Notes: generated by a model not told the origin, from the sequence alone. DNA of 64,000 nucleotides from Nannocystis radixulma (GCF_028369095.1 NZ_JAQNDN010000024.1:757253-821252), one strand, 5' to 3'; positions 417 to 63,400 are shown, numbered from the stretch's first letter. Numbers and translations: made by a program.

Positions 417-515
417 CGTGCCCGCGGCGCGTGTGCGCCCGTCGGCGCGCGGTCGGCCTGGAGACACAGATGTCTCTCGGGATATGTCCGTAGAGACAGT
501 GTCCCGAAGGACAGG

Positions 516-1436
516 TCAACCGCGCTCGCGCAGGGCGCCGTGGATCTTGTCGAGCGTGTCGGCGAGGCGCGAGGCCGGGACGCTGACGCGGGTCGGCATG
601 CCGCCGCCGAGGCCGAGCAGGGCCACGAAATCGAGGCCGCTGTCGAAGCCGGCGGCGATGTTGACGGTCTGGCCGTCGACGACCACGGCCACGCGGGCGC
701 GCTCCTGGCCGAGCAGCAGCAGCTCGGTCTTGTCGAACGGGCGCTGGTTGGCGGGGACGCGCACGAGGGCGACGTCGTCCTCGACGACGTAGGCGCGGGC
801 CAGCGCCGCGGCCTCGGCCGCCATGGCGTCGAAGTCGGCCGCGGCGGCGGCGATCGCCTCCTGCTCGGGGCCGCGCGGCATGCCGGCGACCAGCCAGCGG
901 ACGATCTTGATCAGGAGGACGGTGTCCTCGTAGTGGGCGCGCAGGGCCCGGTCGACGAGCGCGCCGATCGGGCCGGGCTCGCCGATCCGGGTGTCGACGG
1001 CGCGGGCGTCGGCGTCGGCGCCGGGGTAGGGCTCGACGCCGCCGAGCAGCCACTTGGCGGCCGAGTAGAGGCCGTCGGTGTCGAAGTGGGCGACGATGGT
1101 GTCGATCGGACCTGTCTCTTCGACCATCTCGGGCGTGATGATCTCGGGGCAGGCGCCGTGCTCGGCCTTGGTGTGGAGGACGAACCGTCGATCGCCGCGG
1201 AACTGGGCGTGGCGCTCGTGATCGTGGTGGTCGACCCACCGCGCCAGGCGAGCGCCGAGGCCGGTGAGGAACTTGCCGGTGATCTTTTCGAAGCCGCTGC
1301 CGATGCCCTCGGCCGCGAAGGCGACGTCGAGCACGACCACGCGGCCGCGCAGGTTCGCCGGCTTGGGCAGGCGCCGCGGGCTGGCGAACACCAGGTCGAT
1401 CGCGGCGGCGTGAGCGGGGCCGGGCGTGGCGATCAA
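516..1436 (-). CDS. Hypothetical protein with a WVDHHDHERH metal-binding-like motif; possible phosphoesterase; start uncertain (TTG in the ORF track)
   Basis: 306-aa ORF with varied, non-repetitive composition. The opposite-strand ORF 540..1583 is low-complexity G/A/R-rich and was rejected. The start overlaps the stop of the TPR gene. Confidence 0.5.
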   Translation of the reverse strand: MIATPGPAHAAAIDLVFASPRRLPKPANLRGRVVVLDVAFAAEGIGSGFEKITGKFLTGLGARLARWVDHHDHERHAQFRGDRRFVLHTKAEHGACPEIITPEMVEETGPIDTIVAHFDTDGLYSAAKWLLGGVEPYPGADADARAVDTRIGEPGPIGALVDRALRAHYEDTVLLIKIVRWLVAGMPRGPEQEAIAAAAADFDAMAAEAAALARAYVVEDDVALVRVPANQRPFDKTELLLLGQERARVAVVVDGQTVNIAAGFDSGLDFVALLGLGGGMPTRVSVPASRLADTLDKIHGALRERG

Positions 1437-1729
1437 CCTTCCAGCGCGGCGCGGGCGGATTCGAGCTCGCCGAGCGCGTGCGCGTCACCGGCCGCGCGCG
1501 CGGCCTGCTCGCCCTGGTGGAGCACCTGCAGGGCGCCGTCGCGGTCGCCCGCCTCGACCAGGGTGTTGCCGGCCATCAGGTAGGCGGGCACGTACTCGGG
1601 GCTGCGGGCGATCAGTTCGCGGAATTCGCCGATCGCCTCGGCGAGCTGCCCGCGCCGTTTGAGCTCCATCGCCAGGCCGTAGCGCGGGAACGCCTCACCT
1701 GGCTTTTGGGCCACGAACTGTCGGAGCAT
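1433..1729 (-). CDS. Small TPR-repeat protein (98 aa)
   Basis: Internal ATG at 1727-1729 of ORF 1433..1990. MLRQFVAQKPGEAFPRYGLAMELKRRGQLAEAIGEFRELIARSPEYVPAYLMAGNTLVEAGD… reads as a TPR helix-turn-helix pattern. The upstream 87 aa of the ORF are Ser/Arg-rich junk. Confidence 0.6.
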   Translation of the reverse strand: MLRQFVAQKPGEAFPRYGLAMELKRRGQLAEAIGEFRELIARSPEYVPAYLMAGNTLVEAGDRDGALQVLHQGEQAARAAGDAHALGELESARAALEG

Positions 1730-1751
1730 CGCCAGGCGATCCACACGGACC

Positions 1752-2423: not shown

Positions 2424-5306
2424 ATGGTTGCGGACCTCGCCGATGCGATCTTCCCCCGGCCCGCGCGCCCCGGTGCGCCCTTGACCCGCGCTGCACCCTC
2501 CGGGGCTCGCCCCTGGGCCCTGCTGTGGCTGGCCCTCGGCCTCGGCGCCGCGGCGGCGCTGCATCGCTTCGGTCCCGACGTTCCTGTCCTTTTGTTCACC
2601 CTGCCCGAGTGGCTGGAGGCCAGGCTGTCGGAGGCCGGCGACCGCACGCTGGTGCTGGCGCGCCCGAGCGTGCTGTGGCTCATGCCGGTCGCGCTGCTGC
2701 CGTTCCTCGTCGCGGTCGCGCGCCGCTCGCTGGTCGACCTGCCGGCCTGGCAGGTGGCGCTGCAGCTCGGCGCGCGCGTGCTGCTGCTGCTGGCGCTGGC
2801 GCTGGCGCTGGCCGCCCCGAGCCTGCAGGCGCCGCGGCGCGGCAAGACGGTGGTGGTGGCCGTCGACGTGTCGGCCAGCGTCGACGACGGTCAGCTGGCG
2901 GCGTTCACGGCGGTCGCCCGCGAGGTCGTCCGCCTGGTCCGCGGCGAGACGGGCGACCGCGACGACCGCACGCGCCTGCGCCTCGTGACCTACGCGAGCC
3001 GGGCGGCGGCGCTGCCTCTGTCCGAAGGGACAGATGAGGTGCAGCTGTCCCGAGAGCCAGGCGGTGGGCTGGCCAGCGATCACGCCGGGGCGCTGCGGCT
3101 GGCCGAGGCGCTGCTCGACCCCGACACCGAGGGCCGGGTGGTGCTGGTCAGCGACGGGGCCGCCAGCGTGGCCGAGCGCACCGACCTGATCGCGGCGGCC
3201 GAGGGCCTGCGCCGGCGCGGGATCACGCTGCACACCCGCACGGCCGCGCCGGCGGCCCGCGGCGACGTGCTGGTCGCCGGGGTCCACCTGCCGGGCGAGC
3301 TGCGGGTCGGGCAGACGTTCGACGCGGCGATCGACGTGTGGGCCTCCGAGCCGCGCACGCTCAAGCTGTTCGTCGACAAGGACGGGCAGCCGAACGCGCT
3401 GTCGCCGAGCGTCGAGGTGGCGCTGCGCGGCGGGCCGCAGCAGATCAAGGTGCCGGTCCGCGCCAACGCGCCGGGGCCGATCGTGATCGCGGCCCGCCTG
3501 GACGCGGCCGAGCTGGCGGCCGCCGACAACCGCAGCCTCGACAACGACCGCGCGGCGGCCGTCGGCGAGGTCCGCGGGCGGCCGCGCGTGCTCTTGGTCG
3601 GCGAGGGCGATCCGTCGGGCGCGCTGGCGCGGGCGCTGCGGGCCGACCACCTGCAGGTCGACGCCGAGGCGGCGTCGGCGATCCCGGGCGCGGCCGAGGG
3701 GCTGGCGTCGTACGACCTCGTGATCCTGTCGGACGTGCCGTCGCGCCACGTGTCGGGGGCGCAGCAGCAGGCGATCGCGAAGTGGGTCCAGGACGGCGGC
3801 GGCTTCGTGATGATCGGGGGCGAGAGCGCGTTCGGGGTCGGCGGCTGGGGCGGCAGCGTGATCGAGGACGTGCTGCCGGTCCGCTTCGAGGGCGAGCGCC
3901 AGCGCGAGCAGCCGACGCTGGCGCTGGTGCTGGTGATCGACAAGAGCGGGTCGATGTCGAGCGAGGACCGCCTCGACCTGGTCAAAGAGGCAGCTCGCTC
4001 GACGGCCTCGACGCTCGATCCCGGCGACGAGATCGGGGTGATCGCGTTCGACTCGCGCCCGGTCACGCTGGTGCGCCTGCAGCCGGCCGCCAACCGCATT
4101 CGGATCGCCGGCGACATCCGTCGGCTCAGCGCCGGCGGCGGGACGAATGCGCTGCCGGCCCTGCGCGAGGCGTACATGCAGCTCGCGGGCAGCAAGGCGC
4201 TGGTCAAGCACGTGATCCTGCTGTCCGACGGGCAGTCGCCGGAGACCGGGGTGTCGGCGCTCATCACCGACATGCGCGACGCCGACATCACGGTGTCGGC
4301 CGTCGGCGTCGGCGCGGGCGCGGGCAAGGACTTCCTGGCCCGCGTCGCCGAGCGCGGGCGCGGCCGCTACTACTTCAGCCAGGACGGGACCGATGTGCCG
4401 CGGATCTTCTCCCGCGAGACGCGCGAGGTGACCCGCAACGCGGTGGTCGAACGCGACCTGTTCGCGCGCGTGGCCAAGAGCGCCCAGGTGCTGCGCGGGA
4501 TCGATTTCGATCGCGCGCCCGGGCTCGGCGGGGTGATCCCGCTGAAGACCAAGCCGCTGGCGGAATTGCTGCTGCGCACGCACGTCGGCGATCCGCTGCT
4601 GGTCCGCGGCCGCCGCGGGCTCGGCCGCACGGTCGCGTTCGCGTCCGACGCCAAGCCGCGCTGGGCCCACCGCTGGATCGCCTGGGAGGGCTTCCCCAAG
4701 TTCTGGTCGCAGGTGGCCCGCGATGTGATGCGCCAGGGCGCCGCATCGCTCGGCGGGGCGTCGCTGCGGATCACGCCCGGCGCCGACGAGGGCAGCTTCC
4801 GCGCGGTCGTCGACCTCGACGCCAGCACCGGCTTCGTCAGCGACCTGCGCGGCGAGCTGCAGGTGATCGACCCGTCCCTTCCTGCTGGTACCGAAGGACA
4901 TACGACGAAGCTGACGACCCAGCTGACGGCGCCGGGCCGCTACGAGGCGACGGTGATCGGGGTGCGCGCGGGCCAGCGGCTGATCAAGGCGCAGATGTTC
5001 GACGACGGCCAGACACCGCCGCGGCTGGTGGCCGAGGCGACCGGCCAGGCGAGCGTGCCGTACCCGGCCGAGCTGGCGCCCGACCAACTCGGCGCCGACC
5101 CGGCCTGGCTGGCGACGCTGGCGCCCGAGGGCACGCACGCGGGGCCGATCGACGCGGTGGTGACGAGCCCCGGCGCGCCGCAAGGGACGCGCCAGCGCCC
5201 GGTCTGGCCCGAGGTGCTGTGGGCGCTGGCGCTGCCGCTGTTGATCCTCGACCTGCTGCTGCGCCGGGTGGCGTTCGGCCGGGCGCGCCGCGGCGAGATC
5301 GGGTGA
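2424..5306 (+). CDS. Large membrane protein with two von Willebrand factor A domains and a glutamine-amidotransferase-like domain (BatA-like N-terminus)
   Basis: Internal ATG at 2424 (MVADLADAIF…). Hydrophobic N-terminal helices; MIDAS motifs VVVAVDVSASV and LVLVIDKSGSM; the segment LVILSDVPSRHVSGAQQQAIAKWVQDGGGFVMIGGESAFG; a C-terminal transmembrane helix. Confidence 0.85.
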   Translation: MVADLADAIFPRPARPGAPLTRAAPSGARPWALLWLALGLGAAAALHRFGPDVPVLLFTLPEWLEARLSEAGDRTLVLARPSVLWLMPVALLPFLVAVARRSLVDLPAWQVALQLGARVLLLLALALALAAPSLQAPRRGKTVVVAVDVSASVDDGQLAAFTAVAREVVRLVRGETGDRDDRTRLRLVTYASRAAALPLSEGTDEVQLSREPGGGLASDHAGALRLAEALLDPDTEGRVVLVSDGAASVAERTDLIAAAEGLRRRGITLHTRTAAPAARGDVLVAGVHLPGELRVGQTFDAAIDVWASEPRTLKLFVDKDGQPNALSPSVEVALRGGPQQIKVPVRANAPGPIVIAARLDAAELAAADNRSLDNDRAAAVGEVRGRPRVLLVGEGDPSGALARALRADHLQVDAEAASAIPGAAEGLASYDLVILSDVPSRHVSGAQQQAIAKWVQDGGGFVMIGGESAFGVGGWGGSVIEDVLPVRFEGERQREQPTLALVLVIDKSGSMSSEDRLDLVKEAARSTASTLDPGDEIGVIAFDSRPVTLVRLQPAANRIRIAGDIRRLSAGGGTNALPALREAYMQLAGSKALVKHVILLSDGQSPETGVSALITDMRDADITVSAVGVGAGAGKDFLARVAERGRGRYYFSQDGTDVPRIFSRETREVTRNAVVERDLFARVAKSAQVLRGIDFDRAPGLGGVIPLKTKPLAELLLRTHVGDPLLVRGRRGLGRTVAFASDAKPRWAHRWIAWEGFPKFWSQVARDVMRQGAASLGGASLRITPGADEGSFRAVVDLDASTGFVSDLRGELQVIDPSLPAGTEGHTTKLTTQLTAPGRYEATVIGVRAGQRLIKAQMFDDGQTPPRLVAEATGQASVPYPAELAPDQLGADPAWLATLAPEGTHAGPIDAVVTSPGAPQGTRQRPVWPEVLWALALPLLILDLLLRRVAFGRARRGEIG

Positions 5307-5700
5307 GGCGGCGGCCGGCATCGGGCCGGTGAGTCATGGTCGATTGGGCATGTCGCAAGGGACAGGTAGTCTGGCGTTCGGCCGCGGCGAGATGTCGGGT
5401 GAGGCGCGGGCCGGCATCGGGCCGGTGAGCCATGCGTGAGGGAGCATGTCGAAAGGGACATGTCGTCGTGGCGTTTGAAGGGCCGGCGAGATGTCGGGTG
5501 AGGCGCGGGCTGGCAGGGGCCGGAGCTGGGCGAGGTGGAATGTGTGGCGTTCGGCCGGCGCGCCGCTGGAGACAGGGTGAGGCGGGGCCGGCAGGTGGCC
5601 GGGCTGAGGTCGAAGGAGAATGTCGCCATGGACATGCCGTAACAGTCATGTCTTTGTGGGCATGTGCTTGAGGGCATGTTTCAAGGGTCATGGTGAAAGC
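5288..5700. repeat. Tandem array of about four degenerate ~95-bp repeats that starts inside the last codons of the vWA gene; its AT-richer units also carry 14-bp-phased CATGTC motifs
   Basis: cgcggcgagatcgggtgaggcggcggccggcatcgggccggtgag spans the vWA stop. It recurs as cgcggcgagatgtcgggtgaggcgcgggccggcatcgggccggtgag at ~5381, again at ~5481 and again at ~5553. Each unit ends in a GGACATGTC-type segment. Confidence 0.7.
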
Positions 5701-6685: not shown

Positions 6686-7200
6686 GCGCGCCGAACCGCG
6701 AGCGGACGATCGCGAGGCGAGCTCGAGAGCGAGACGCGCGGACGGTGTGGATGCAGAGCCGCGGAGCGGCGCGTCGCGAGGCACGGCTCTGAGACGCGGA
6801 TGGAGGCAGGCGACGGCGTCGGGGCGGTGCAGATCTGCCAGTGCGCGCGGCGTGATCCAGGTTCCCAGGTGAGCGGGTCGAATTGCGAGCGGGCGGTAGC
6901 GAGACGCGGAGCAGGCGAGGTCGCAGATCTGCTGGCAGTGAGCGCGATGGGATCGAGGCGCACAGGTGCGCGTGCCGAGATGCGAGCGGACGATAGGACG
7001 TCGTCGGGGCGGTGCAGAGCCAGGTTCCCAGGGAGTGCATCGCGACGCGGATGGAGATCTGCTGGCAGTGAGCGCGGTGTGATCGAGGTTCACAGGTGCG
7101 TGTACCGAGATGCGAGCGGACGGCAGCGGGACGCGGATGGAGATAGGTGACGTGGTCGATGGGGTGCAGATCTGCCAGTGAGCGCGGAGTCATCCAGGTC
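6665..7200. repeat. Degenerate ~100-130-bp tandem repeats, about four copies, seeded from the 3' end of glycine-rich gene 1
   Basis: The gene ends gtgatcagctggtgagcgcg. Copies of gcagatctgc(tgg)cagtg(a/c)gcgcgg…gatccaggt.cacaggtg.g occur at ~6829, 6923, 7052 and 7166. gagacgcggatggag recurs at 6791, 7044 and 7128. Confidence 0.65.
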
Positions 7201-7513
7201 CACAGGTGAGTGTGTCGTGGCCGGGCGGACGGCGGCGAGGTGCGAGGCGAAGGTCGGACTCGAGGTCGGTGCCGTGGACCGGCGAGGTGCAGCTTCGTGG
7301 TGGACCGCGACGACGTGCGGCCCCGTGGCGGCGGGGCCAAAAGCGGTGGCGAACGTCGTGCGGCGGCGAGTGGTGCCGTCTTGCGAGGATGTCTTTCGGA
7401 CATGTGCGAAGGGACATCCTCATGGAGAGCGGCGCGGCGCTGGTGATGCGGGACACAACGGGGTTTGCGTGCCTGCCTGCTGCGCATCATCCCTACAGGT
7501 CGCAGGGGGAACG

Positions 7514-8675: not shown

Positions 8676-8703
8676 CGCGATCGTGGCATCCTCGGCGGTG
8701 CCC

Positions 8704-10887: not shown

Positions 10888-10976
10888 GCGCCGCGCAGAA
10901 TTAACACCTGACTGGGTGTTGCCGGCCGCGCGGACGCAGGCTTGTCGGCCGGGCGGGCGCGGGCGACACTGGCGGC

Positions 10977-12035
10977 ATGGAGTTCGCGCGGCTGGCGGAG
11001 GCCCTCGGCGGCGAGACGATGGCGGTCGAGGCGGGCGGGCGCAGCGACCTGGCGCCGTTCGTGCTGCGCTTCGGGACAGGTCCCGAAGTACAGGTGTATC
11101 CCGAGCTGCTGGAGGGCGCCTGCGTCGGCGCGGTCTTCGTGGTCGCGCGGGCCGACGCGGCCGAGACGCCGCGGATCGTGCTGCGGGCCGAGGACGCGAT
11201 CGACCGCGGCGGCAAGGCGCTCGGGATCAACCGCGAGCTGCAGCTCGGCGACGCGGCGTTCGACGCGGCGGTCTACGTCGAGTCGGAGGCCCCCGACGCG
11301 CTCGTGGCCCAGGTGCTGGCGGCCCCGGCGGCCCGCTCGGCCGCGCAGGCGCTGGTGCGCGGGCCGGCAGGCGAGGTCCAGCTCGGCGAGGGCCGGGTGA
11401 CGGCGAAGCTGACGGCGGACCAGCTCGAGGCGCCCGCGGCCGCGACCGAGCTGCTGGCGTCGCTGCGGGCGCTGGCGGGGGCGATGGCTGTCCCGAAGGA
11501 CATGCCGACCCGCGCCGAGCTGGTGCGCCGGCGCCCCGTCGGCCACATCTTCGCCATCGCGTTCGCGTGGCTGGTCACGCTCGCGCTGGCAGTGGTGCTG
11601 CGCCCGCCGCAGGTGCTGGCGTGGCAGCCGGTGTTCGCGGGGATCGGGATCGGGGGACTGCTGTGGATGATCGTGTGCGGCGGGCTGGCCCTGGTCCTGC
11701 GCGGCGCGCCCGACTCGCTGCGCTGGCTGTCGATCTGCGCGGCGGCGTTCCTGCTGACGACGCCGTTCGCCGGGATGAAGCTGGCGCTGTACGCCAACGC
11801 TGCCCTCGACGCCGGGCCGGAGGAGGCGCTCCGCCTGCCGGTGCGGGTGGTCGACCGCGGGGAGACCCGGGTGGTCATCGAGGTCGAGGGGCTGGTGCTC
11901 GGGCAGTCACCGACGCGGCTGCATGTCCCGATGGACAGGGTCGTCGGGACATTGCCGGAAGAGCCGGTGATTCTGACGCTCACGACTCGCCCGGGCGCGC
12001 TCGGCTGGGCGTGGCTCGTCGATGTGCGGCGGTGA
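10977..12035 (+). CDS. Hypothetical integral membrane protein
   Basis: 352-aa ORF with several hydrophobic helices in its C-terminal half. Its antisense alternatives are R/G-rich. Confidence 0.5.
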   Translation: MEFARLAEALGGETMAVEAGGRSDLAPFVLRFGTGPEVQVYPELLEGACVGAVFVVARADAAETPRIVLRAEDAIDRGGKALGINRELQLGDAAFDAAVYVESEAPDALVAQVLAAPAARSAAQALVRGPAGEVQLGEGRVTAKLTADQLEAPAAATELLASLRALAGAMAVPKDMPTRAELVRRRPVGHIFAIAFAWLVTLALAVVLRPPQVLAWQPVFAGIGIGGLLWMIVCGGLALVLRGAPDSLRWLSICAAAFLLTTPFAGMKLALYANAALDAGPEEALRLPVRVVDRGETRVVIEVEGLVLGQSPTRLHVPMDRVVGTLPEEPVILTLTTRPGALGWAWLVDVRR

Positions 12036-12131: not shown

Positions 12132-13478
12132 TCACGCGGTTTCTTGCGCAGGCTCTTGGCCGGCTTCGCCGTCGATCGGCCGGCCCGGGCCGAACGGTTC
12201 GACGGCTCGCGAGACTCGCGGCTCGTCGACGTGGACCGGGCCGTGCACGCGGCGCAGCTCGGGGTCGATGTGCTCGCGCACGACGCGGAACAGCCCGTTG
12301 TCGAACGACTTGCCGCTGGCCGGCGCGACGTGCTCGATGCGCTCGCGCAGACCTCGAGCCTGCATGACCTCGGCGCGGTGGGCACAGAACGGGTTGTTGC
12401 CGGGGCGCCCGAGCAGCGGCTCGCTGGCGGCGGTGCAGCCGGCCATGCAGGTCTCGGCGTAGTAGCACTCGCGACAGTAGCCCCACAGATCGTCGAGGGT
12501 GCGCCGGCGGATGTAGCCGAGCTGGTAGCTGTCGTCCCAGATCTCGCGGATCGATCGCTCGCGCCAGTTACCGCCGACGTTGAGCGGGCCGCCGAGGCTG
12601 GGGCAGTTCTTGATCCCGCCGTCGCTGTCGATGCCGAGGGTGTTGACGCCCGCGCCGCAGCCGCGCCAGTGCGTGCGCAGGGCGGCGCGCAGGCGGGTCT
12701 CGAGCGGGCCGAAGTAGCCGAGGCTGTTGGCCGGCCAGAAGCGGATGCCGAGCGCGTTGCAGCGGTCGATCACCCGCTCGAGCGTGACGAACAGCTCGGG
12801 CACCATGTACGGCTGCAGGATGAGCTCGGGGTGATCGGCGGCGTTGCCGTGGGCGACGGTGAGCTGCAATTGCCAGGCGCGGATGCCCTCGGCGGCCAGC
12901 AGCTCGAGCAGGTCGAGGAGCTCGTGGCGGGTGCGCTGGTTGATCTGACAGTTGCTGGCGATCGGCAGGCCGGCTGCGCGGGCCCGCCGGAGGGTCGAGA
13001 AGGCGGCGCGCCAGCTGCCGGGGACGCCGCGCAGGCCGTCGTGGGTGGCCTCGAGGCCGTCGATCGAGACGGCGAGGCTGGACATGCCGGCGTCGATCAT
13101 CGCCGCGAGTCGATCGTCGTCGAGGTTGAGGCCGCCGGTGGTGATCATGCACTTCATGCCGGCCTCGCGGATGGCCCGCACGACGAGGATGAAGTCGTTG
13201 CGCAGGTAGGCCTCGCCGCCGATCAGCACGACCTCGCCGCAGCCGAGGTCCTTGAGCTCGGCGACGACGCGCAGGCACTCGTCGGTGTCGAGCTCGTGCG
13301 GCCGGCGCTGGCCGGCTCGCGGCCCGCAGTGGACGCACTTCTGATCGCAGGCGAGGGTGAGCTCCCAGATCGCCCAGGTGGGGTTGCCCCGCGGGGCGCC
13401 GGGGCGGCCGTAGCGGTCGGCGGCCTGCGGCAATCCGGCGACGACGGGCAGGCGACGGCGGGCGTCGGCGAGCTTCAT
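12132..13478 (-). CDS. Radical SAM / SPASM-domain peptide-modifying enzyme, paralogue 1
   Basis: CDQKCVHCG is a CxxxCxxC cluster. The C-terminal Cys-rich SPASM region reads GYCRECYYAETCMAGC…NPFC. It is about 70% identical to the 33450..34769 protein. Confidence 0.9.
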   Translation of the reverse strand: MKLADARRRLPVVAGLPQAADRYGRPGAPRGNPTWAIWELTLACDQKCVHCGPRAGQRRPHELDTDECLRVVAELKDLGCGEVVLIGGEAYLRNDFILVVRAIREAGMKCMITTGGLNLDDDRLAAMIDAGMSSLAVSIDGLEATHDGLRGVPGSWRAAFSTLRRARAAGLPIASNCQINQRTRHELLDLLELLAAEGIRAWQLQLTVAHGNAADHPELILQPYMVPELFVTLERVIDRCNALGIRFWPANSLGYFGPLETRLRAALRTHWRGCGAGVNTLGIDSDGGIKNCPSLGGPLNVGGNWRERSIREIWDDSYQLGYIRRRTLDDLWGYCRECYYAETCMAGCTAASEPLLGRPGNNPFCAHRAEVMQARGLRERIEHVAPASGKSFDNGLFRVVREHIDPELRRVHGPVHVDEPRVSRAVEPFGPGRPIDGEAGQEPAQETA

Positions 13479-14044: not shown

Positions 14045-14112
14045 GCGGGTGCGCCAAGGGACATGTCGAATCAGGCATGTCGTGAAAGACATGCTGGCGA
14101 GGGCATGTCTGT
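14045..14112. repeat. Array of 14-bp-phased CATGTC repeats upstream of the peptide-rSAM operon
   Basis: gggacatgtcgaatca ggcatgtcgtgaaa gacatgctggcgag ggcatgtctgttc gaccatgtcagcg. The region is AT-richer than its surroundings. Confidence 0.6.
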
Positions 14113-14121
14113 TCGACCATG

Positions 14122-15459
14122 TCAGCGCGAGCCCAGCAGGGCGCGGCGCAGCACGCTGGGGTGGAACAGGGCGCTGCTCGGGCGCAGCAGGTGCAGCACC
14201 TCCATCATGCGCAGCTGGACGTCGGGCGAGCGGGTGGCGGCGCTGAAGATCCGGTCGACCAGGCGGTGCATGACCTTGAGGCCAGGTGACGGTTTGCCGG
14301 TGGTCCCGGGCCAGCGCAGATCGTCGCCGACGGCGGTCATGAAGGCGGCCTGGTTGCCGGCGGCGAGGCGCTTCTGAAAGCGCAGGCCGGGCGGCTGGCC
14401 GGGGCGGGCGCGCAGCTCGGCGTCGAGGTGGGTCGAGGCGACGGCGGCGACGCTCATGCCCTGGCCGTAGACGGGGTTGAGGGCGCAGGCGGCGTCGCCG
14501 AGCACGACGAAGCCGTGCGGCCAGCGGCGCAGGCGCTCGTAGTGGCGCAGGCGGTTCTCGGTCCGGCGATAGCCGTGGATGCTGCTGCACGGGGTGGCGC
14601 CGGCCAGCGCGTCGCGCAGCGCCGGGGTCCGCAGGCCGCCCGCGAATTCGAGGAAGCCGGCCTCGTCGGTCGGCGGGAAGGCGCCGCCGTAGCCGACCAG
14701 CGTGACGATGTGACGCCCGCCCTCGACCGCGTACACGACCCCGCCGCGCGGGTTCTGGCCCGGCTTGCCCATGATGTAGAGGACCTTCCAGTCGGGCCGC
14801 GCGCGCAGCTCGTAGAGGCGGGTGACGTAGCCGAGCTGGGCGTCGATGACGGTCTCGGCGGGCTCGGGGTAGCCGAGCGCGGCCAACCAGGTCGGGGCCT
14901 TCGAGGCGCGGCCGCTGGCGTCGACGACCAGGTCGGCGCGCAGGTCGTCGGCCGCGAGCTCGGGCGCGCCGGCGCGGCGGTGGACCTGCACGCCGACGAT
15001 CCGGTCGCCCGTGGCCTGCAGACCGGTAACCTCGTAACCGGCGTGGATGCGCACGCGATCGTCGGCGACGAGGCGCGCGCGCACGTTCCACTCGAGCAAG
15101 CCACGGGTGCAGGCGCGCGAGCGCAACGGCGAGGGCCCGCGCGGCATGAGGCCGAACGGGGTGTGCCACTCGACGTCGGCCAGCCAGTCGTACTCGTGCG
15201 CCCCCGCGGCCGCGAGCGCGTCGCCGAGGCCGGGGAACTGCTCGCTCAGGATCTGCCAGCCGCGCGTCAGCAGGACGTGGACGTGGTGGCTCTGCGGGGC
15301 ACCGGCGCGCGGCTCCGGTCCGCCCGGCAAGAGGTCGCGGTCGAGGACGGTGACGCGCTCGTAGTGACGCGTGAGCACGCGAGCGGCGAGGAGGCCGGCG
15401 ATCCCGCCGCCGATCACGAGCGCGCGCCGATTCGCCGGCGCGGAGCCTGATGTGGGCAT
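14122..15459 (-). CDS. FAD-dependent monooxygenase / oxidoreductase
   Basis: Internal ATG at 15457-15459. VIGGGIAGLLAARVL is a GxGxxG dinucleotide-binding fold, and the family-typical GDAAH-like motif LGDAACALNPVYGQG is present. Confidence 0.8.
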   Translation of the reverse strand: MPTSGSAPANRRALVIGGGIAGLLAARVLTRHYERVTVLDRDLLPGGPEPRAGAPQSHHVHVLLTRGWQILSEQFPGLGDALAAAGAHEYDWLADVEWHTPFGLMPRGPSPLRSRACTRGLLEWNVRARLVADDRVRIHAGYEVTGLQATGDRIVGVQVHRRAGAPELAADDLRADLVVDASGRASKAPTWLAALGYPEPAETVIDAQLGYVTRLYELRARPDWKVLYIMGKPGQNPRGGVVYAVEGGRHIVTLVGYGGAFPPTDEAGFLEFAGGLRTPALRDALAGATPCSSIHGYRRTENRLRHYERLRRWPHGFVVLGDAACALNPVYGQGMSVAAVASTHLDAELRARPGQPPGLRFQKRLAAGNQAAFMTAVGDDLRWPGTTGKPSPGLKVMHRLVDRIFSAATRSPDVQLRMMEVLHLLRPSSALFHPSVLRRALLGSR

Positions 15460-46870: not shown

Positions 46871-46881
46871 TGTCTCGAGGG

Positions 46882-48654: not shown

Positions 48655-48757
48655 GACATGTTCTCGTAGACATGGTCAAATGGCCATGTCCATGAGAACA
48701 TGTCTATCGATACAGCTGCGGCTCGGCCCGCGGTACGACTCGCGCGCCGCGCCTCGC

Positions 48758-49858
48758 TCACGCTGCGCGCGACCACAGCGCCGCGTCGAGCTCGGCGCAT
48801 AGCCGCGTGGCCACCGCGGCCGAGGGCACGCCGAGCCGCTGCAGCGCCGGCACCTCGAGTCGCTGCAGCGACGCGTCCAGCTCCGCGATCGCCGCCTGTC
48901 GCGCGGCTGCGACCTCGGCTCTGCCGGCGACATCGAGCTGTCCCATGAGCCAGGCGTCGATCGCCCACGCCAGTTCGGCGTGACGCGCCTCGTCGGCGGC
49001 GATCTCGGCGTACATGCTGCGCATCGCAGGCTCGGCGGCGAAGCGGGCCTGATGGGCCGCCGACAGCGCCGCCCAGGTCTCGCGCACGCAGCCCTCGACC
49101 GCGTTCTCGACGGCGATCGCCAGCAGATCGCGCTCGGCCACCGCGACGTAGGCCGGCGGCGTGACCTCGGCGCCGCGAGCCCGCGCGGCGTCGGCGACGA
49201 CCTGGGCGTGGCGGACCTCGTCCGCGGCGGCGGCATCGATGCGCGCCAGCAGCTCGGCCGGCGCGCCAAGGTCTGCCAGCTCCTGCGCGAGCGCCTGGAA
49301 CGCGTGAACCGAGGCCGCCTCGTCGTGAGCCGCGCGCGCCAGCCAGGCCGCGGCCGCTTCGGCGTCGCCCCCGTGCCCCCGCGACGCCACGCTCGCGTGC
49401 CGCCGGCCCTCGCAGTAGGCCAGGTAGACGCACGTGACCGTCACCTTGTTGGCGACCTTGACGACATCGCACGATTTCAGAGATTCGTGCTGTTCGCCCG
49501 CAGGCTGGCAGACGACCTCGCAGGTCTCCTCGTCGGAGAGCACGACGCCGCCCGTCGTGCTCGCGTCCGTCGTGCTCGCGTCCGTCGTGCTCGCGTCCGT
49601 CGTGCTCGCGCCCGTCGTGCTCGCGTCCGTCGTCCCCTCGGAGGTGGTCGGCCCGGCGGTCGTGTCACCGCCGAGGACCGGCATGCCGCCATGCTGAAAC
49701 TCCGCGTATTCCTCGGGTGTCATCTCGATCTTGTCCTCGTAGGTCGTCGGGCATTCACCGCGCGGGGGATAGCAGCCGGACAGCAAGACCGAGAACAGCG
49801 CCGCCAGTGACACATCGAGTCTATTGAAAGAAGAAGAGATAAGCGGATTCGAACTCAT
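48758..49858 (-). CDS. Lipoprotein with a ferritin-like (di-iron-type EARHAE) C-terminal domain and an (ASTTD)n repeat linker
   Basis: Internal ATG at 49856-49858 (MSSNPLISSSFNRLDVSLAALFSVLLSGCYPP). Five 15-bp tandem repeats at ~49550-49630 encode TDAST units. The C-terminal domain has paired E…H helices. Confidence 0.6.
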   Translation of the reverse strand: MSSNPLISSSFNRLDVSLAALFSVLLSGCYPPRGECPTTYEDKIEMTPEEYAEFQHGGMPVLGGDTTAGPTTSEGTTDASTTGASTTDASTTDASTTDASTTGGVVLSDEETCEVVCQPAGEQHESLKSCDVVKVANKVTVTCVYLAYCEGRRHASVASRGHGGDAEAAAAWLARAAHDEAASVHAFQALAQELADLGAPAELLARIDAAAADEVRHAQVVADAARARGAEVTPPAYVAVAERDLLAIAVENAVEGCVRETWAALSAAHQARFAAEPAMRSMYAEIAADEARHAELAWAIDAWLMGQLDVAGRAEVAAARQAAIAELDASLQRLEVPALQRLGVPSAAVATRLCAELDAALWSRAA

Positions 49859-53598: not shown

Positions 53599-56500
53599 AT
53601 GTCGACGCCGCCCCACACGCCGCCCGACACACCGTCCGCCCGCGGCGCAGGTGCGGGCACGTGGGCCGACGTCGACGTCCATCGTCTCCACGCACGCGTC
53701 ATGGGCCGACTGTTCGGCGAGCCGGCGGCGCCGACCACCATCGGTCGTTTTCGCGTCGAGCGGCGGCTCGGGGCGGGGGCCATGGGCGTCGTGTATGCGG
53801 CCGTCGACGCCCAACTCGGCCGCCGCGTGGCGATCAAGTTGCTGCACCCGCACCTCCAGGGCGACGAGCAGGGTCGCGCCCGTCTGTTGCGTGAGGCCCG
53901 GGCGATGGCCCGCCTCGAGCACGAGCACGTGGCGCGGATCTACGAGGTCGGCGCGTGGGGCGACCAGGTCTACATCGCCATGGAATTGATCGAGGGCGTG
54001 ACCCTCGAGGCCTGGCTGCGCGAGCGCCCGCGGCCGTGGCACACGGTGCTCATGGTGTACCTGCAGGCCGGACGGGCGCTGGCCGCGGCTCACCACGCGG
54101 GCCTGCTCCACCGCGACTTCAAGCCCGAGAACGTGCTCGTCGACAACCGCGGCCGCGCCCGCGTCCTCGACTTCGGCCTCACCTGCGCCCTCGATGCCGG
54201 CGAGAGCCTCGACGACGAGCTCGAGCCGCTGACGCGCACCGGCAGCATCCTCGGCACGCCCGCCTACATGGCGCCCGAGCAGCAGCGTTACGGCGCCGCC
54301 GAGCCGCGCTCCGATCAGTTCAGCTTTTGCGTGGCGCTGTTCGAGGGGCTGTTCGGACTGCGCCCGTTCGGCTCGGTTCCGCGCTTCGGGCAGGTCGAGA
54401 TCGCACCCATTCCGCGCGAAAGTCGCGTGCCTCCGCGCATCCGCCGCGCGATCGCCCGCGGCCTGTCCGAAAAGCCCGACGCCCGCTGGCCGACGATGGA
54501 CGACCTGTTGGCTGCTCTCCAGCCGCCGCGGCGGTTCGCCCGCGAGCCCGGAGCGGGTCGCGCGCGGACGGTCCTGATCGCCGGCGGAGCGGCCGCGGCC
54601 GCGGCCGGGCTGGTCGCGCTCGGGGTGAGCCTGGCCCAGCCCGAGGCAGGCCCGGTCACTTCGGGCGAGGCGCCGCCGGCGAGCGTGGGCGAGGTCGTCC
54701 CGTTCGCCGCCGACGAGCTCGCGGCCGAGCGCGCGGCGGCCGAACGCCACGCCCAGGCGCTGCGGGTCCGCGACGCCGCGTTCTCGTTGTTGCCGCGCGA
54801 CCCGACGACCGCAGCGCTGCTGCTGCGCGAGCTCGACGACCCCGGAGCGCTGGCGCAGCGGGTGCTGGCCGAGCCGATCAGCGCGGCGATCCTGCGCGGT
54901 CACGAGGGGCCGGTGCTGACGGTGCGCTGGGTCGAGGCGCCAGCCGCGGGCGGAGCTGTCCCCGGGGACAGGCAGGGTCCGGACGGCGGCGCGACCGCCG
55001 ATGCCGGCGCGGCTGTCCCTTCAGACAGGTCCGCGGGGGGCGAAGGCGCACCTGTCCCTTCGGACAGCTCCGGGTCGGGCGGCGCCGCGCCTGTCCCTCT
55101 GGACAGCTATGCGATCGAGACCATCGACGCCGCCGGCGGGCTGCGCCGGTTCGCCACCAGCGGCGGTCCGGCGAGCACGTCCGCCCGCGCCCCCGCGTTC
55201 GACCCGCGGCGCGGCCCCGCCGGCGAGCAGCTGCGGACCGACGCGCGCGGGCAGGTCTCGCTCGAGGCGGGCGGGCGCGTCGTCGCCATGCGCGGCGTCA
55301 GCGGCCCGCTCGCCGCCGTCGCCTGGAGCCCGGACGGAGCCCAGGTGGCGGCAGCCGGGCCGCGCGGCGAGGTGTGGCTGGTGGCCGACGGCCGCGCGCT
55401 GGCGATCGGCAACCGCGGCGCGGCCGTCAGCGCGCTCGCGTGGGACCGCTCCGGCCGCCAGCTGGCAATCGGCCGCGACGACGGCGGCGTCGACGTCTGG
55501 CGCGTCGACGGCCGCGCGCGCCGGGTGTTCTCGGTGGTCGGCGACGGCGGCGTGACGAGTCTGGCTTTCGGGACAGGTTGGCTCGCCAGCGGCAGCGACG
55601 ACGGCAGCGCGCGGGTGTGGCGGCTCGGCGGCGCGGCACGGCCGTACGTGCTGCGCGGGCACACCGGCCCGGTGCGGGCGCTGGCGTTCGCGCCGACCGG
55701 CGTCCGCCTGGTCAGCGGCAGCGACGACGGCAGCGCGCGGGTCTGGCGGCTCACGCCGGCGGCCCTGCGCGAGCACGACGTCGGCGCGGCGGTGCACGCG
55801 GTCGCGTGGAGCCCCGACGGCACCAGGCTGGCGGCGGCAGGGACCCGCAGCGTGTGGTTGCTGCCGGTCGACGGCGGGCCGGTGCGCCGCCGCGACCACG
55901 CCGGCACCGCGCTCGCGCTGGCCTGGCGCCCCGACGGCCAGGAGCTGGCGATCACCGACGATTCCGGCGCGATCACCTGGCTGCCCGTCGGCGAGGGCGC
56001 CACCCGGCGCGCGGCCGTCGATCGCCGGTCCGTGCCCGCGCTCGCGTGGGACCCTCGCACCAGCCGCCTGGCCGCCGGCGGCAGCGACGGCAGCTTTTTC
56101 ATCTGGCCTCCAGGACATGTCTCGGAGAACATGCCCGAGCCGACCCGCGCCGCCCAGGGCCGGGGGCCGATCACCGCGCTGGCGTGGTCGCCGGTCGACG
56201 AGCGCCTGGCGGCCGTGACCGCGACCGGCTTCGTGCTGGTGCGCGTCGAGCAGACCGTGTTCATCGAGCTGGGCCAGCCGCTGCGCGCGCTGGCCTGGAG
56301 CCCCGCCGGCGACGCGCTCGCGGTCGCGGGCGAGGGCAGGGCGCTGGTGCGGATCGCCGCGGCCACCGGGGTGCGCAGCGAGGTCGGACGCGCCGGCGCG
56401 CCGCTCGACAGCGTCGCCTGGGATCCGCAGGGCACGTGGATCGCCGCCGGTGCGGCCGACGGCGAGCTCCACTTCTGGTCGCTGCAGGGCGACGACGGCC

Positions 56501-56760
56501 CCGAGGTGCTCGCGGGTCACGGCGCCGGCGTGCACGCGCTCGCCTTCGACGCGCGCGGCGACCGCCTGGCCTCGGCCGGCGCCGACGGCCGCGTCGTCGT
56601 CTGGCCGCGCCTGAACGCCGATCTGCGCGCGCGCCTCGTCGCGGCCACGCAGGCCTGTCTGCAGCCCGCGGAGCGCCGGCGCCACCTCGGCGAATCGCAG
56701 GAGACCGCCGACGCGCGGGCCGCCGCGTGCGAACGATCGTTTGGTAATGCGAATTACTAA
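53599..56760 (+). CDS. Ser/Thr protein kinase fused to WD40 beta-propeller repeats
   Basis: Internal ATG at 53599. Kinase motifs LGAGAMGVVY, AIK, HRDFKPENVL, DFG and APE. At least ten WD-like repeats follow (…GSDDGSARVWRL…). Confidence 0.9.
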   Translation: MSTPPHTPPDTPSARGAGAGTWADVDVHRLHARVMGRLFGEPAAPTTIGRFRVERRLGAGAMGVVYAAVDAQLGRRVAIKLLHPHLQGDEQGRARLLREARAMARLEHEHVARIYEVGAWGDQVYIAMELIEGVTLEAWLRERPRPWHTVLMVYLQAGRALAAAHHAGLLHRDFKPENVLVDNRGRARVLDFGLTCALDAGESLDDELEPLTRTGSILGTPAYMAPEQQRYGAAEPRSDQFSFCVALFEGLFGLRPFGSVPRFGQVEIAPIPRESRVPPRIRRAIARGLSEKPDARWPTMDDLLAALQPPRRFAREPGAGRARTVLIAGGAAAAAAGLVALGVSLAQPEAGPVTSGEAPPASVGEVVPFAADELAAERAAAERHAQALRVRDAAFSLLPRDPTTAALLLRELDDPGALAQRVLAEPISAAILRGHEGPVLTVRWVEAPAAGGAVPGDRQGPDGGATADAGAAVPSDRSAGGEGAPVPSDSSGSGGAAPVPLDSYAIETIDAAGGLRRFATSGGPASTSARAPAFDPRRGPAGEQLRTDARGQVSLEAGGRVVAMRGVSGPLAAVAWSPDGAQVAAAGPRGEVWLVADGRALAIGNRGAAVSALAWDRSGRQLAIGRDDGGVDVWRVDGRARRVFSVVGDGGVTSLAFGTGWLASGSDDGSARVWRLGGAARPYVLRGHTGPVRALAFAPTGVRLVSGSDDGSARVWRLTPAALREHDVGAAVHAVAWSPDGTRLAAAGTRSVWLLPVDGGPVRRRDHAGTALALAWRPDGQELAITDDSGAITWLPVGEGATRRAAVDRRSVPALAWDPRTSRLAAGGSDGSFFIWPPGHVSENMPEPTRAAQGRGPITALAWSPVDERLAAVTATGFVLVRVEQTVFIELGQPLRALAWSPAGDALAVAGEGRALVRIAAATGVRSEVGRAGAPLDSVAWDPQGTWIAAGAADGELHFWSLQGDDGPEVLAGHGAGVHALAFDARGDRLASAGADGRVVVWPRLNADLRARLVAATQACLQPAERRRHLGESQETADARAAACERSFGNANY

Positions 56761-60110: not shown

Positions 60111-60328
60111 GATCCTCACCCACCACGAAGACCGCCCGGGCAGATCTGGCGACCTGCCCGGGCGGTTGCCTGTCTGCTCCTCGACATGTCCGAAAGGACA
60201 GCTGAGGGCGCCGCCGCGAGGCGGGCCGGCGGGCCGTCGTTCGCGCCGGCGCGCCGGCAGGGGCGAGGGCGCTCGCGCGCGAGGTCGCGCTCGCCGGGCG
60301 AGACGGAGGTCGTGTACCGTGCTCAGCG

Positions 60329-63214
60329 GTGGGTGCCCCCTCGCCCGACGACACGCGCACCGGGCCCTCCGGTGTGGACCTGCTCGCGACCACCGACGGG
60401 CGCTCCCCGGCGCTCGACGTGACCGCCCGGGCCCGCCCGAGCGCGATCGAGGAGACGGCTCTGGCCCCGCCTGACCGCAAGGACAGCGTCACGGCCCAGC
60501 AGACCTCGGGCATCAGTGTGCGCGGCGCCGCGGCTGCGCTCGACGACTCGCTGGCGATCCGTCAGTCGCGCCGGATCGGCCGCTACGCGATCCTCAGCGA
60601 ACTCGGGGAGGGCGGCATGGGCGTCGTGCTGTCCGGCTACGACGAGGTGCTCGAGCGGCGCGTGGCGATCAAGCTCGTGCGCTCGCACCACCGCAACGAC
60701 GAGCGCCTGCAGGCGCGATTGTTGCGCGAGGCGCAGGCGCTGGCCCGCCTGTCGCACCCCAACGTGGTCCAGGTCTACGAGGCCGGCACGATCGGCGACG
60801 AGCTTTTCATCGCCATGGAGTTCGTCCGCGGCGTCACGCTGTCGGCCTGGCTCGACGACCGCGAGCGCAGCCCGCAGGACATCCTCACCGTGTTCGCCGA
60901 GGCCGGTCGCGGTCTGGCAGCGGCCCACCGCGTCGGCCTCACCCACCGCGACTTCAAGCCCGGCAACGTCCTCGTCGACCTCGAGGGCCGCGTCCGCGTG
61001 GTCGACTTCGGCCTGGCCGCGCTCGCCGAGCAGGCCGAGCGGTCCGAGGACGGCGAACTCGGCGGCGCGGCGCTCGAGCGCACCGCCTTCGTCGCCGGCA
61101 CGCCGGCGTACATGGCCCCGGAGCAATGGCTCGGAGGACAGGTCGACGCCCGCACCGATCAGTTCAGCTTCTGCGTCGCGCTGTGGGAGGCGCTGTGGGG
61201 CGTGCGGCCGTTCGCCGGCGAGACCGTCGACGAGCTGCGCGAACAGGTCCTGGTCGCCGATCTGCCCGAGCGCGGGCAGGTCGGCCCGCGCGTACCGCCG
61301 CGGCTGTACCGGGCGCTGTCCCGCGGCCTCGCGCGCGCCCCCGATGCGCGCTACTCGAGCATGGACGCGCTGCTGGCCGACCTCGCCGGGCCGCAGGTGC
61401 GAGCCCGCCACGCCGTGGTCGGCCTCGGCCTCGCCGTCGTGGTCGGCCTCGCCGCGGCCGCCTACAGCCTGCACGAGCCCGATCGCTGTGGCGGCGGCGA
61501 GGCCCGGCTGATCGGCGTGTGGGACCCGGCCCGCCGCGACGCCGCCGCCGACGCCTTCGAGGCCGCCGACGTCGACTTCGCCGACGAGGCGTGGACGCAG
61601 GTGGCCGCGCGCCTCGACGCTCGCGCCGACGCGATCGCGACCATGCACCGCGAGGCCTGCGAGGCCCACGCCCGCGGCGAGCAGTCGGAGCGCCTGCTCG
61701 ACCGCCGCATGGCCTGTCTTTCAAGACATGTCCATGAGGTCAAGGCGGTCACCGACCTGCTGGTCGCCGCCGACGCCGGCGTGGTCGAGCGGGCGGTCGA
61801 CGCCGTCACCGCGCTGCCGCCGGTCGAGCGCTGCGCCGACCTCCCGGTCCTGCAGGCCGAGCTGCCGCCGCCCGACGATCCCAACACCGCGCTCGCCGTC
61901 GACGCGGTGCGCCGCCAGCTCGCCAACGTCGCCGCGCTCGAGCACACCGGCCGCTACGAGGCCGGCCTGCTCGCCGCCGAGGCGGCCGTCGCCGCCGCCG
62001 AGGCCGCCGCCTACAGCCCGGTGGTCGCCGAGGCCCTGCTCGCGCGCGGGCGCCTGCTCGCGCTGGTGCACCGCGACGGCGAGGCCCACGTCAGCCTGAT
62101 GTCGGCCTTCACCACCGCCACCGCGAGCCACGAGGATGCGGTCGCCCGCGACGCCGCGGCCGCCCTGGTCGAGGCCCTCAACAGCCTCGGTCGCCTCGAT
62201 CACGCCGAGGTCTGGCTGCAGATCGCCACCGCCGCCCAGAGCCGCGCGCCCGACGACATCTCCGCCGCTTTCCTCGACTTCGCCCGCAGCAAGCTGCTGT
62301 GGTCGCTCGGGCGCTACGCCGAGTCCGAGGTCGCCATCGAGCGCAGCGTCGCCGCCTACGACGCCCTCCACGGCGCCGACAACCCCGACACCGCGCGCGC
62401 CCGCCAGTGGTTCGGCACCGCGCTGTGGGCCCGCCAGGAGTTCGCCCGCTCGCAAGCTGTCCTTCCGGACAGCCGCACCCGCCTCGAGCGGCTCTACGGC
62501 CCCGACCACCCCGAGGTCGCCGCCGCCCTGCGCTACGAGGGCAGCCTCTACTTCGTCCTCACCGACTTCGACGCCGCCCTGGCGACCTGGCGCCGCGGCC
62601 TCGACATCATCCGCCGCGCTCACGGCGAGGACGATCCGCTGGTGGTCGTGTTCCAGGGCAACATCGCCGCCGCGCTGGCCCGCAGCGGCCGCCCGGTCGA
62701 CGCCGTCGCCGCGTTCGAGGCGGTGGTGCGCTCGCTCGAGCGCCGCCTCGGCCCCGACCACATCGAGCTGTGCTCCCAGCTCGACAACCTCGGCGAGTCG
62801 TACCTCGGCGCCGGCCAGCTCGACCGCGCGCGCGAGGTGATCGACCGCTCGCTGGCGATCCGCCGCCGCGTGCTGGGCGAGAGCCACGCCGAGGTCGCGC
62901 GCTCGCTGCTCGGCCTCGGCGAGTGGGGCATCCGCGCCGGCGACCTCGCCACCGCGATCCCGGCGTTCGAGCGGGCCCTGGCGATCCGCGCCGGCACCGA
63001 CGTCCACGCCCTCCTGCGCGGCCGCGCCGAGTACGGCCTGGCCCGCGCGCTGTGGCTGTCCGACCGCGACCGCCCGCGCGCTCGCGTCGTCCTCGACCAG
63101 GCCGTCGCCACCTTCACGGCCCTGGGCCTCGCCGGCTCGATCGACCTCGCCGAGGCCGTCGCCTGGCGCGCCGCGCACGTGGAGGGCGCCGACGCCGTGG
63201 CGTCGCAGAAGTGA
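60329..63214 (+). CDS. Ser/Thr protein kinase with a long C-terminal TPR/helical repeat region
   Basis: [24 protein letters not shown] and APE. The C-terminal half has a periodic helical-repeat composition. The start at the 60329 GTG is uncertain. Confidence 0.85.
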
Positions 63215-63329
63215 GGCCCGCACATAAAACACCGACGAAGCGGCGCCAGAGATGCCTGAAAGGACATGTCGTGCGGCGCATGTCGGAGGCTGGCGGGCCC
63301 GAGGAGCTGCGCCCGCGGCGAGGCTCTCC

Positions 63330-63400
63330 GGGGCATGTCCGAATGGGAATGTCTCATCGAGCATGTCTCATTGGGCATGTCGTCACGGGCATGTCCTGAG
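63330..63400. repeat. Five perfect-phase 14-bp GGGCATGTC repeats upstream of the SDR gene
   Basis: gggcatgtccgaat gggaatgtctcatc gagcatgtctcatt gggcatgtcgtcac gggcatgtcctgag. Confidence 0.7.

Follow-up and report, generated by a model that had tools for sequence, protein, structure and literature searches.

Phased arrays of a 14-bp palindrome lie at gene ends in Nannocystis

Introduction

Classical U-tract terminators are largely missing from very GC-rich bacteria, the myxobacteria among them, and little is understood of how genes end in these organisms. A 64,000-nucleotide stretch of Nannocystis radixulma DNA (NZ_JAQNDN010000024.1:757253-821252; hereafter the window, with positions counted from its first base), which has a GC content of ~73%, raises this question through a short repeat whose CATG core recurs in the intergenic spacers with a period of 14 bp. 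What is the unit of this repeat, where does it lie relative to genes, and what might it do there? A preliminary description of the window had listed 19 locations of the repeat and had interpreted them either as cooperative binding sites of a global regulator or nucleoid-associated protein upstream of genes, or as a dispersed family resembling miniature inverted-repeat transposable elements (MITEs) or repetitive extragenic palindromes (REPs). The analysis reported here describes the arrays as tandem rows of a small palindrome that are found at gene ends rather than at promoters.

Phasing and non-coding location of the arrays

The window was divided into 53 kb of coding and 10.9 kb of non-coding DNA by means of a codon-usage Viterbi model. 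Distances between CATG cores in the window peaked at 14 bp (30 occurrences), 28 bp (15), 42 bp (8) and 56 bp (5), with 0-2 occurrences at each of the adjoining distances. Non-coding DNA contained 28 of the 30 pairs at 14-bp spacing and coding DNA a single one, while dinucleotide-shuffled spacers gave 0.2 ± 0.4 such pairs (maximum of 3 in 500 shuffles) and a null that preserves the CATG count of each spacer gave 1.0 (maximum of 6 in 2000 runs). Additionally, a position-weight-matrix chain detector identified 24 arrays in the window and none in the reversed sequence, and 60 units with at most one mismatch were present as compared to five in the reversed-sequence control. The claimed 14-bp phasing thus survives the shuffle, count-preserving and reversed-sequence nulls; the enrichment of phased pairs in non-coding over coding DNA (28 versus 1), on which the preliminary description had made the motif depend, holds in the window, and the repeat is indeed non-coding. 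Tandem Repeats Finder, applied to the window, returned only two short 14-bp rows.

Some particulars required revision. Phased units were found at all 19 of the listed locations, although those at 15545, 26250 and 40385 proved to be a single unit or degenerate doublets. The arrays consist of 2-6 units, where 4-9 had been claimed, and a unit is present in 21 of the 44 non-coding segments of the window (approximately half), where most spacers had been said to be occupied. The 17% of the window that is non-coding carries 42 of the 60 units with at most one mismatch, so that extragenic copies are many, as in families of REPs and bacterial interspersed mosaic elements (BIMEs).

Anatomy of the repeat unit

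The repeat unit is a 14-bp palindrome, TGYCC-nWWn-GGRCA, composed of two 5-bp arms and a 4-nt centre that is AT-rich and otherwise free. Because the units abut without a gap, GGRCA meets TGYCC at every junction, which generates both the CATG core and the strict 14-bp period. The slot beside the last CATG unit of an array retains only its inner half, GGnCA, and then decays, symmetrically at both sides of the array, from which it follows that the 14-bp palindrome is the unit and CATG the junction. The palindrome GGACATGTCC noted earlier is therefore real, but array ends and covariation (see below) place the relevant dyad in the spacer and not on CATG. A CATG-centred unit, GGRCATGYCC, was considered and rejected, as the pairs inside it are complementary less often than chance predicts (107 versus 139.4) and the arrays end in half units. 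In the window, the strict form TGYCC-N4-GGRCA occurs 16 times (0.3 expected) and the relaxed form TGYC-N6-GRCA 40 times (4.4 expected).

The geometry of the unit is rigid: in the Nannocystis loci, 96 of 104 units have a loop of exactly 4 nt, the gap to the next unit is zero in 79 of 99 cases, and CATG cores are separated by 14 bp on 197 occasions as opposed to 13 bp on four and 15 bp on five. The two middle positions of the 4-nt centres are ~70% A+T, and neither a strand bias nor a preferred tetraloop was detected in these centres. The loops of neighbouring units are unrelated (identity of 0.27 versus a null of 0.28), and loops at mirror positions of the arrays are not complementary (0.31 versus 0.28). 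As the copies have only ten arm bases in common and their loops are unrelated, the family is not MITE-like; membership of a MITE or variable-number tandem repeat family, for which near-identical full-length copies are expected, was rejected on the same loop identities, and recent slippage was rejected since adjacent spacers are dissimilar. Apart from the arms, the units have no terminal inverted repeats, and target-site duplications are likewise absent. A GTAG or CGTC tag, sought in the unit and flank logos, was absent, the flanks reaching background after GGnCA. GCATGC cores are under-represented inside the arrays; avoidance of a restriction site was rejected as the source of this depletion, since the hexamer is not depleted in coding DNA (ratio of 0.99).

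Position relative to genes

Positions were counted in 35 Nannocystis loci after removal of the spacers that had selected each locus. Arrays occupied 11 of 22 convergent, 13 of 82 tandem and 1 of 40 divergent spacers in these loci, the corresponding counts in the window being 1 of 7, 8 of 26 and 0 of 8. In tandem spacers, the array starts at a median of 19 nt past the upstream stop codon and 194 nt ahead of the next start codon. These spacer types and stop-codon distances assign the arrays to gene ends and not to promoters. The preliminary description had placed most arrays just upstream of a gene start; in the window, however, they mostly start 0-75 nt past the preceding stop codon (approximately 15 of the 19), and overlap the stop itself at 516, 14122, 23125, 38340, 46882 and 48654. 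Similarly, in three-genome views (the window, a locus designated L113, and N. punicea), arrays directly follow TGA or TAG. At least one unit was present in 45 of 58 convergent spacers, those without a unit being mostly shorter than 100 bp, and unit orientation displayed no sense bias.

Pairing between units and relation to terminators

At variable arm positions, complementarity between adjacent units exceeds expectation (112 of 239 versus 92.6; p = 0.003), and a second count of arm complementarity between adjacent units yielded 147 versus 126.5 (p = 0.0006). Controls that skip one unit were flat, and complementarity was depleted among pairs centred on CATG within a unit. In an independent count of 150 doublets, 163 cells had changed on both sides as compared to 118.5 ± 15.4, a value reached in none of 500 shuffles, while perfect doublets represent 6.3% of adjacent pairs versus 1.9% under the null. 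A single unit comprises 14 nt with 5-bp arms, and adjacent units make up palindromes of 24-28 nt in which 74.6% of cells are paired. The arrays were more stably folded than shuffled versions, with z values of -1.6 to -6.3. A hairpin spanning the whole array was rejected as a general rule because mirror spacers are non-complementary, although some arrays (e.g. 48652-48707) do fold back fully. RNA-specific signatures were also rejected, as loop tetramers, purine content, folding energy and G.U versus A.C pairing were all devoid of sense/antisense bias.

A scan of 20 kb with the U-tract terminator consensus identified 9 sites (4.7 expected), which is near chance; none of these was located at an array, and the only ones in a spacer lay just past the stop at 8569. 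The arrays resemble intrinsic or bidirectional terminators in that hairpins occur directly past stop codons and are symmetric enough to serve either side of a convergent spacer. In contrast to such terminators, no T-run follows the array hairpins, the units are strictly phased, and the stem sequence is retained across hundreds of sites and across genera. Where an array is absent in the window but present in relatives, a different hairpin follows the stop codon. GC-rich hairpins without T-tracts were also noted directly after stops at 10897-10920, 17155-17190 and 60135-60165 (e.g. AACACCtgactgGGTGTT and GGCCGGCGGCTCGCgcgtGCGAGCCGCCGGC), either in spacers without an array or ahead of one, which suggests an interchangeable use of several kinds of 3' hairpin.

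Distribution, conservation and turnover

One genome per species was scanned using four CATG cores in 14-bp phase as the query. Among the matches listed, those with non-identical units were all from Nannocystis, namely N. pusilla, N. exedens, N. bainbridge, N. punicea, N. sp. RBIL2 and one metagenome-assembled genome, while the remaining matches listed were plain 7-bp or 14-bp microsatellites, unlike the family. Proteins encoded by the window are myxobacterial in appearance (major vault protein, Ser/Thr kinases, DUF1552/DUF1592); its threonyl-tRNA synthetase (ThrS) is 93% identical to that of a cluster containing N. punicea and 90% identical to that of a cluster containing N. exedens and N. pusilla, and N. 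punicea is syntenic with the window from 6 to 29 kb. The notion that two independent lineages carry the family, drawn from named ThrS hits at ~65%, was abandoned in view of these Nannocystis identities. Relatives at 79-82% ThrS identity carry a few doublets only, in relatives at 72-76% units occur only singly, as CCTGTCC-N4-GGACAGG, and two of these lie directly past a ThrS stop codon, and a 21-kb Sorangium sample contained no units. The arrays are a lineage-specific family that is dense in the genus Nannocystis, and the conservation in related genomes raised by the preliminary description is seen in the same arrays being present in other Nannocystis genomes. At a locus of a relative with 79% ThrS identity (L114 4100-4133), the whole 34-bp convergent spacer amounts to two copies of the perfect 14-mer palindrome GGGGACATGTCCCC.

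Orthologous arrays of N. pusilla (L049) and N. sp. RBIL2 (L074) differ by 14 substitutions in 70 bp and by no indel; the 20 CATG positions are free of substitutions, and purifying selection acts on CATG in orthologous arrays. CATG is conserved between species while the loops diverge. Arrays are kept at the same gene ends in the window, L113 and N. punicea, while unit number and sequence change and some arrays of one genome are absent from another; genomes that differ in unit number are 85-88% identical in coding DNA. Past ThrS, for example, the window has three units and L113 none, while those of N. punicea are dispersed, and past a PAF-AH-like gene the same three genomes have 0, 6 and 2 units, respectively. 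Arrays can furthermore be amplified within larger blocks, since a 96-bp tandem repeat at 5287-5523 (2.5 copies, 84% identity) carries 14-bp units inside it. Similar blocks are located in N. pusilla (L006 3480-3760, ~92-bp repeats) and N. punicea (L120 11600-12040, 85-bp repeats with TGTCCTTCGGGACA in each).

Discussion

We favour the interpretation, with a probability of roughly 55%, that the arrays constitute a REP/BIME-like family of extragenic palindromes acting at gene 3' ends as hairpin terminators, as stabilisers or as an insulator. This reading is based on their match with REPs in position, palindromy, clustering of inverse neighbours, intragenic copies and fast change in copy number; the REP-like half of the earlier MITE/REP proposal consequently fits in position, palindromy and clustering, while the MITE-like half does not. 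REPs of E. coli, Pseudomonas, Stenotrophomonas and other bacteria, which include the GTAG and CGTC superfamilies (Di Nocera et al. 2013, PMC3733652), are situated downstream of coding regions, mainly between convergent or unidirectional open reading frames (ORFs), and are rare between divergent ones, a distribution that the arrays share. They are often clustered, with inverse-orientation neighbours that form larger folds, occasional copies are intragenic, and copy number differs among related strains (PMC3733652). The Nannocystis units are likewise short, multi-copy extragenic palindromes in a post-coding position, with clustering, intragenic copies and variable copy number. They differ, however, in that a REP/BIME unit measures 20-40 bp as opposed to 14 bp with 5-bp arms, and in that they carry no GTAG or CGTC tag, which places them outside these two superfamilies. 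Unlike REPs and BIMEs, moreover, they abut without any gap, their period is exactly 14 bp and their junctions read CATG, and their copies have only the arms in common, the loops being unrelated. An excess of G.T pairing is cited as evidence of RNA function in REPs (PMC3733652), whereas the Nannocystis stems exhibit none. Association with a REP-associated tyrosine transposase (RAYT), a Y1 transposase whose gene is itself flanked by the repeats, is a further REP trait, while no transposase-like domain was recognised in the proteins of the window.

The arrays would act where transcription ends, most likely through hairpins, because they start at or just past stop codons in a genome lacking U-tract terminators. 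In a transcribed or unwound array, stems of 7-12 bp closed by 4-nt loops could form between neighbouring units, or the entire array could fold back on itself, and the resulting structures might serve as a terminator or attenuator, or as a barrier to 3' exonucleases. Such structures would read alike on both strands, so that both genes of a convergent pair could be served. A sequence-specific partner protein is probable, here as well as under the protein-lattice alternative below, since it is the arm sequence itself, beyond its pairing ability, that persists across genera, in a rigid geometry that is symmetric between strands; candidates would be a RAYT-like enzyme spreading the units or a host factor bound to them.

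Several observations weigh against this interpretation. No excess of G.U over A.C was found in sense-oriented stems (34 versus 29 and 58 versus 62), folding energy did not differ significantly between sense and antisense strands (25 versus 16 arrays, p = 0.18), and the covariation is modest, with ~25% of stem cells unpaired. The loops at mirror positions are not complementary, hairpins alone need neither an exact 4-nt loop nor an exact zero gap, and hairpin stability does not explain why the depletion of GCATGC is confined to the arrays. No transposase-like or RAYT-like domain was present in any window protein, and no candidate binding protein was found. Finally, the array at 7382-7423 is an exception in that it adjoins a gene start, and it is conserved in three genomes.

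Database and literature searches returned nothing comparable. Rfam assigned no family to the arrays at gathering thresholds or at E <= 1; the one match, to mir-H1 at 34825-34930, is on a GC-rich hairpin, was obtained for both strands and is at chance level. Literature searches with the raw motif brought up p53 papers only, and nothing relevant was retrieved on Nannocystis or myxobacterial repeats, palindromes or REPs; we found no published description of the family and, as the preliminary description had stated, no described regulator site that matches it.

Two other systems invite comparison. In Neisseria, inverted pairs of the DNA uptake sequence (DUS) place a short motif downstream of genes, and dRS3/NIME arrays consist of small palindromes with variable separators. 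The Nannocystis arrays are alike in layout, although motif, scale and organisms differ, and no evidence for a role in either DNA uptake or phage integration was found in them. The metboxes of MetJ and the heptads of the omega repressor, both ribbon-helix-helix proteins, are abutted units of fixed period that each bind one dimer cooperatively; these operators lie in promoters, whereas the Nannocystis arrays, though equally abutted and of fixed period, avoid spacers that contain only promoters.

A serious rival, which we consider less likely, is that the arrays support a protein lattice on double-stranded DNA where genes end: each 14-bp palindrome would bind one dimer of a sequence-specific protein, and dimers on abutted sites would touch and polymerise. 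A step of 14 bp corresponds to 120 degrees, so that three units would span four helical turns, and the resulting filament could present a roadblock to transcription, insulate genes or form a topological element between them. In favour of such a lattice are the rigid loop length, the zero gap and the 14-bp CATG spacing, the full strand symmetry (G.U equal to A.C and no sense bias of unit orientation), the AT-rich non-complementary centre, as in many operators, and the depletion of GCATGC inside arrays only. The retention of the arm sequence from Nannocystis to relatives with 72% ThrS identity is consistent with it, as are the unrelated loops, which imply that the units are not mutual copies. 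However, independent recognition of half-sites does not predict the complementary covariation between neighbouring arms, including positions past the junction, some arrays are near-perfect long hairpins including their spacers (48652-48707), and no candidate protein was found. A likeness to ATGT-N8-ACAT, the PadR-type operator and a string that occurs in one paper, is a tentative lead. In a bolder form, which we consider improbable, a dedicated, sequence-specific protein of Nannocystis would polymerise on the abutted post-stop palindromes and stop or insulate transcription or manage supercoiling. If this were true, a protein-lattice system of termination or insulation would replace U-tract terminators in a ~73% GC genome, and the exact 14-bp step, which fits three units into four helical turns, would mark the filament structurally.

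We judge it quite improbable that the arrays are a purely selfish mobile repeat, RAYT-driven or MITE-like, which accumulates where it is tolerated and has no host function. The arrays favour convergent and tandem spacers, as REPs typically do (PMC3733652), unit number and array presence vary among closely related genomes, copies are found within a gene (55008-55108), and units occur inside larger duplications of 83-96 bp. Conversely, adjacent loops no more alike than random give no sign of copy-and-paste or recent slippage, the units lack terminal inverted repeats beyond the arms and a target-site duplication, purifying selection acts on CATG where arrays are orthologous, and the window encodes no transposase. 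This explanation also overlaps with the REP/BIME-like reading that we prefer, as REPs are often both selfish and co-opted. That the arrays are promoter operators through which a master regulator or nucleoid protein controls the downstream gene, as the preliminary description had proposed, is highly improbable: they are intergenic, in tandem spacers they also lie upstream of the next gene, one of them (7382-7423) abuts a likely start codon and is conserved in three genomes, and their palindromic phased units recall tandem MetJ or omega-repressor boxes, but promoter-bearing divergent spacers are nearly empty (1 of 40 in the loci, 0 of 8 in the window), approximately half of the promoter-free convergent spacers are occupied, and the arrays hug the upstream stop (19 nt) and not the downstream start (194 nt).

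An abundant, sequence-defined and phased family at stop codons, occupying approximately half of the convergent spacers examined in a single genus, offers a testable handle on 3'-end formation or gene insulation. It would extend the range of REP-like elements to a smaller, 14-bp unit with an unusual zero-gap tandem architecture, and its conserved arms, free loops and rigid spacing point to a sequence-specific partner that could be purified. The motif can also help to annotate gene ends in Nannocystis, whose genomes are mined for natural products, where operon boundaries matter.

Features of the window

The units and arrays of the window are compiled in Table 1.

Table 1. Location and context of the 14-bp units and arrays in the window (fold z, folding relative to shuffles)
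Position	Strand	Element	Context
464-515		4 degenerate units, including TGTCCGTAGAGACA and TGTCCCGAAGGACA	Abuts stop 516-518 of minus-strand gene 516-1436
5330-5467		Two short arrays, 5330-5399 and 5426-5467	In 96-bp tandem duplication, 24 nt past plus-strand gene stop (5306)
5614-5697		6-unit array	Same +/+ spacer as 5330-5467; fold z -1.6 sense, -0.5 antisense
7382-7423		2-3 units	Possible ATG at 7421; conserved in L113 (1411) and N. punicea L120 (892)
14050-14126		5 units	Over stop 14122-14124 of minus-strand FAD-oxidoreductase gene; fold z -3.7, -3.5
15552-15565		Single weak unit TGTCTGAAGAGACA	Sole listed site in a divergent-looking spacer
17200-17248		3 units	58 nt past ThrS stop (17149), 3' of GC-rich hairpin; orthologous place in L113 without array
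21655-21680		Complete unit TGTCCTTCGGGACA flanked by half units	65 nt past stop at 21590
23118-23152		2-3 units	From stop 23123-23125 of second M16 peptidase gene; orthologous arrays of 5 units in L113 and N. punicea
26245-26275		Unit and half unit	47 nt past stop (26322) of minus-strand histidine kinase gene
28883-28931		3 units	14 nt past stop (28938) of minus-strand dehydrogenase gene
34977-35004		Unit TGTCCTGAGGGACA with flanks	Convergent spacer, within left arm of long inverted repeat
35126-35194		3-4 units	Convergent spacer, 36 nt past stop of minus-strand ORF 35230-35685
38341-38501		Units 38341-38364, arrays 38399-38433 and 38446-38501	From base after plus-strand gene stop (38340); fold z -3.1
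40391-40418		Degenerate doublet	Convergent spacer, 31 nt past stop at 40360
40990-41031		3 units	Tandem -/- spacer
46565-46592		Doublet AAGGACATGTCCGG AGGGACATGGCGCG	
46725-46891		Arrays of 5 and 6 units, internal ~83-bp duplication	Fold z -2.3
48652-48707		4 units	Convergent spacer, from stop 48652-48654; hairpin with ~24-bp stem on either strand; fold z -6.3, -6.0
55008-55108	+	Single units TGTCCCTTCAGACA, TGTCCCTTCGGACA, TGTCCCTCTGGACA	One per copy of 39-bp tandem repeat
60183-60206		Unit TGTCCGAAAGGACA, CATG junction at left	73 nt past stop at 60110, 3' of GC-rich hairpin
63246-63412		3 units 63246-63287, 6 units 63329-63412	32 nt past stop at 63214; fold z -2.4 sense, +0.7 antisense

At the site of the array 14050-14126, L113 has 5-6 units and N. 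punicea two, and the units differ, while the last unit of 46725-46891 overlaps the stop (46882-46884) of the upstream minus-strand gene. The 39-bp (13-codon) repeat at 55008-55108 comprises 2.6 copies with a TGTCCnnnnGGACA-type unit in each and is located in the kinase-WD40 linker of gene 53701-56760; these units look like in-frame intragenic copies of the element. Two further perfect units, TGTCCCGAAGGACA (11489-11502) and TGTCCCGATGGACA (11924-11937), are situated 435 bp apart in the unannotated gene 10977-12035, the former in its coding part and the latter at its 3' edge, and both are base-for-base identical in N. punicea (L120 5183 and 5618).

A long inverted repeat (34796-35058 and 41076-41243) flanks a segment of ~6 kb that contains an ORF, an HTTM-domain gene, a ParA/TPR gene and a GFA gene. 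Its arms pair over 132 nt at 85% complementarity and over 46 nt at 100%, and the left arm contains a local 35-nt hairpin (34818-34937) that is the source of the mir-H1 match. The segment between the inverted repeats could be invertible or mobile. Two other repeats were noted: the 830-bp spacer at 6686-7513 is full of ~97-bp repeats (GATCTGCCAGTGAGCGCG...CCAGGT.CACAGGTG) that do not belong to the family, its L113 orthologue measuring only ~190 bp, and a 15-bp tandem repeat, CCGTCGTGCTCGCGT (5.5 copies, 97% identity), is located at 49552-49633 in the minus-strand ORF 48758-49813.

The 849-aa protein encoded at 30705-33254 combines the shoulder domain of the major vault protein with a vault repeat and an SPFH domain; homologues of the major vault protein are rare in bacteria, and a look-up retrieved no record of the identical protein. 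Radical SAM (SPASM) paralogues are located at 12132-13478 and 33450-34769, and the single gene of N. punicea (L120 6145-7332) matches the first with a nucleotide identity of 87% and the second with one of 79%.

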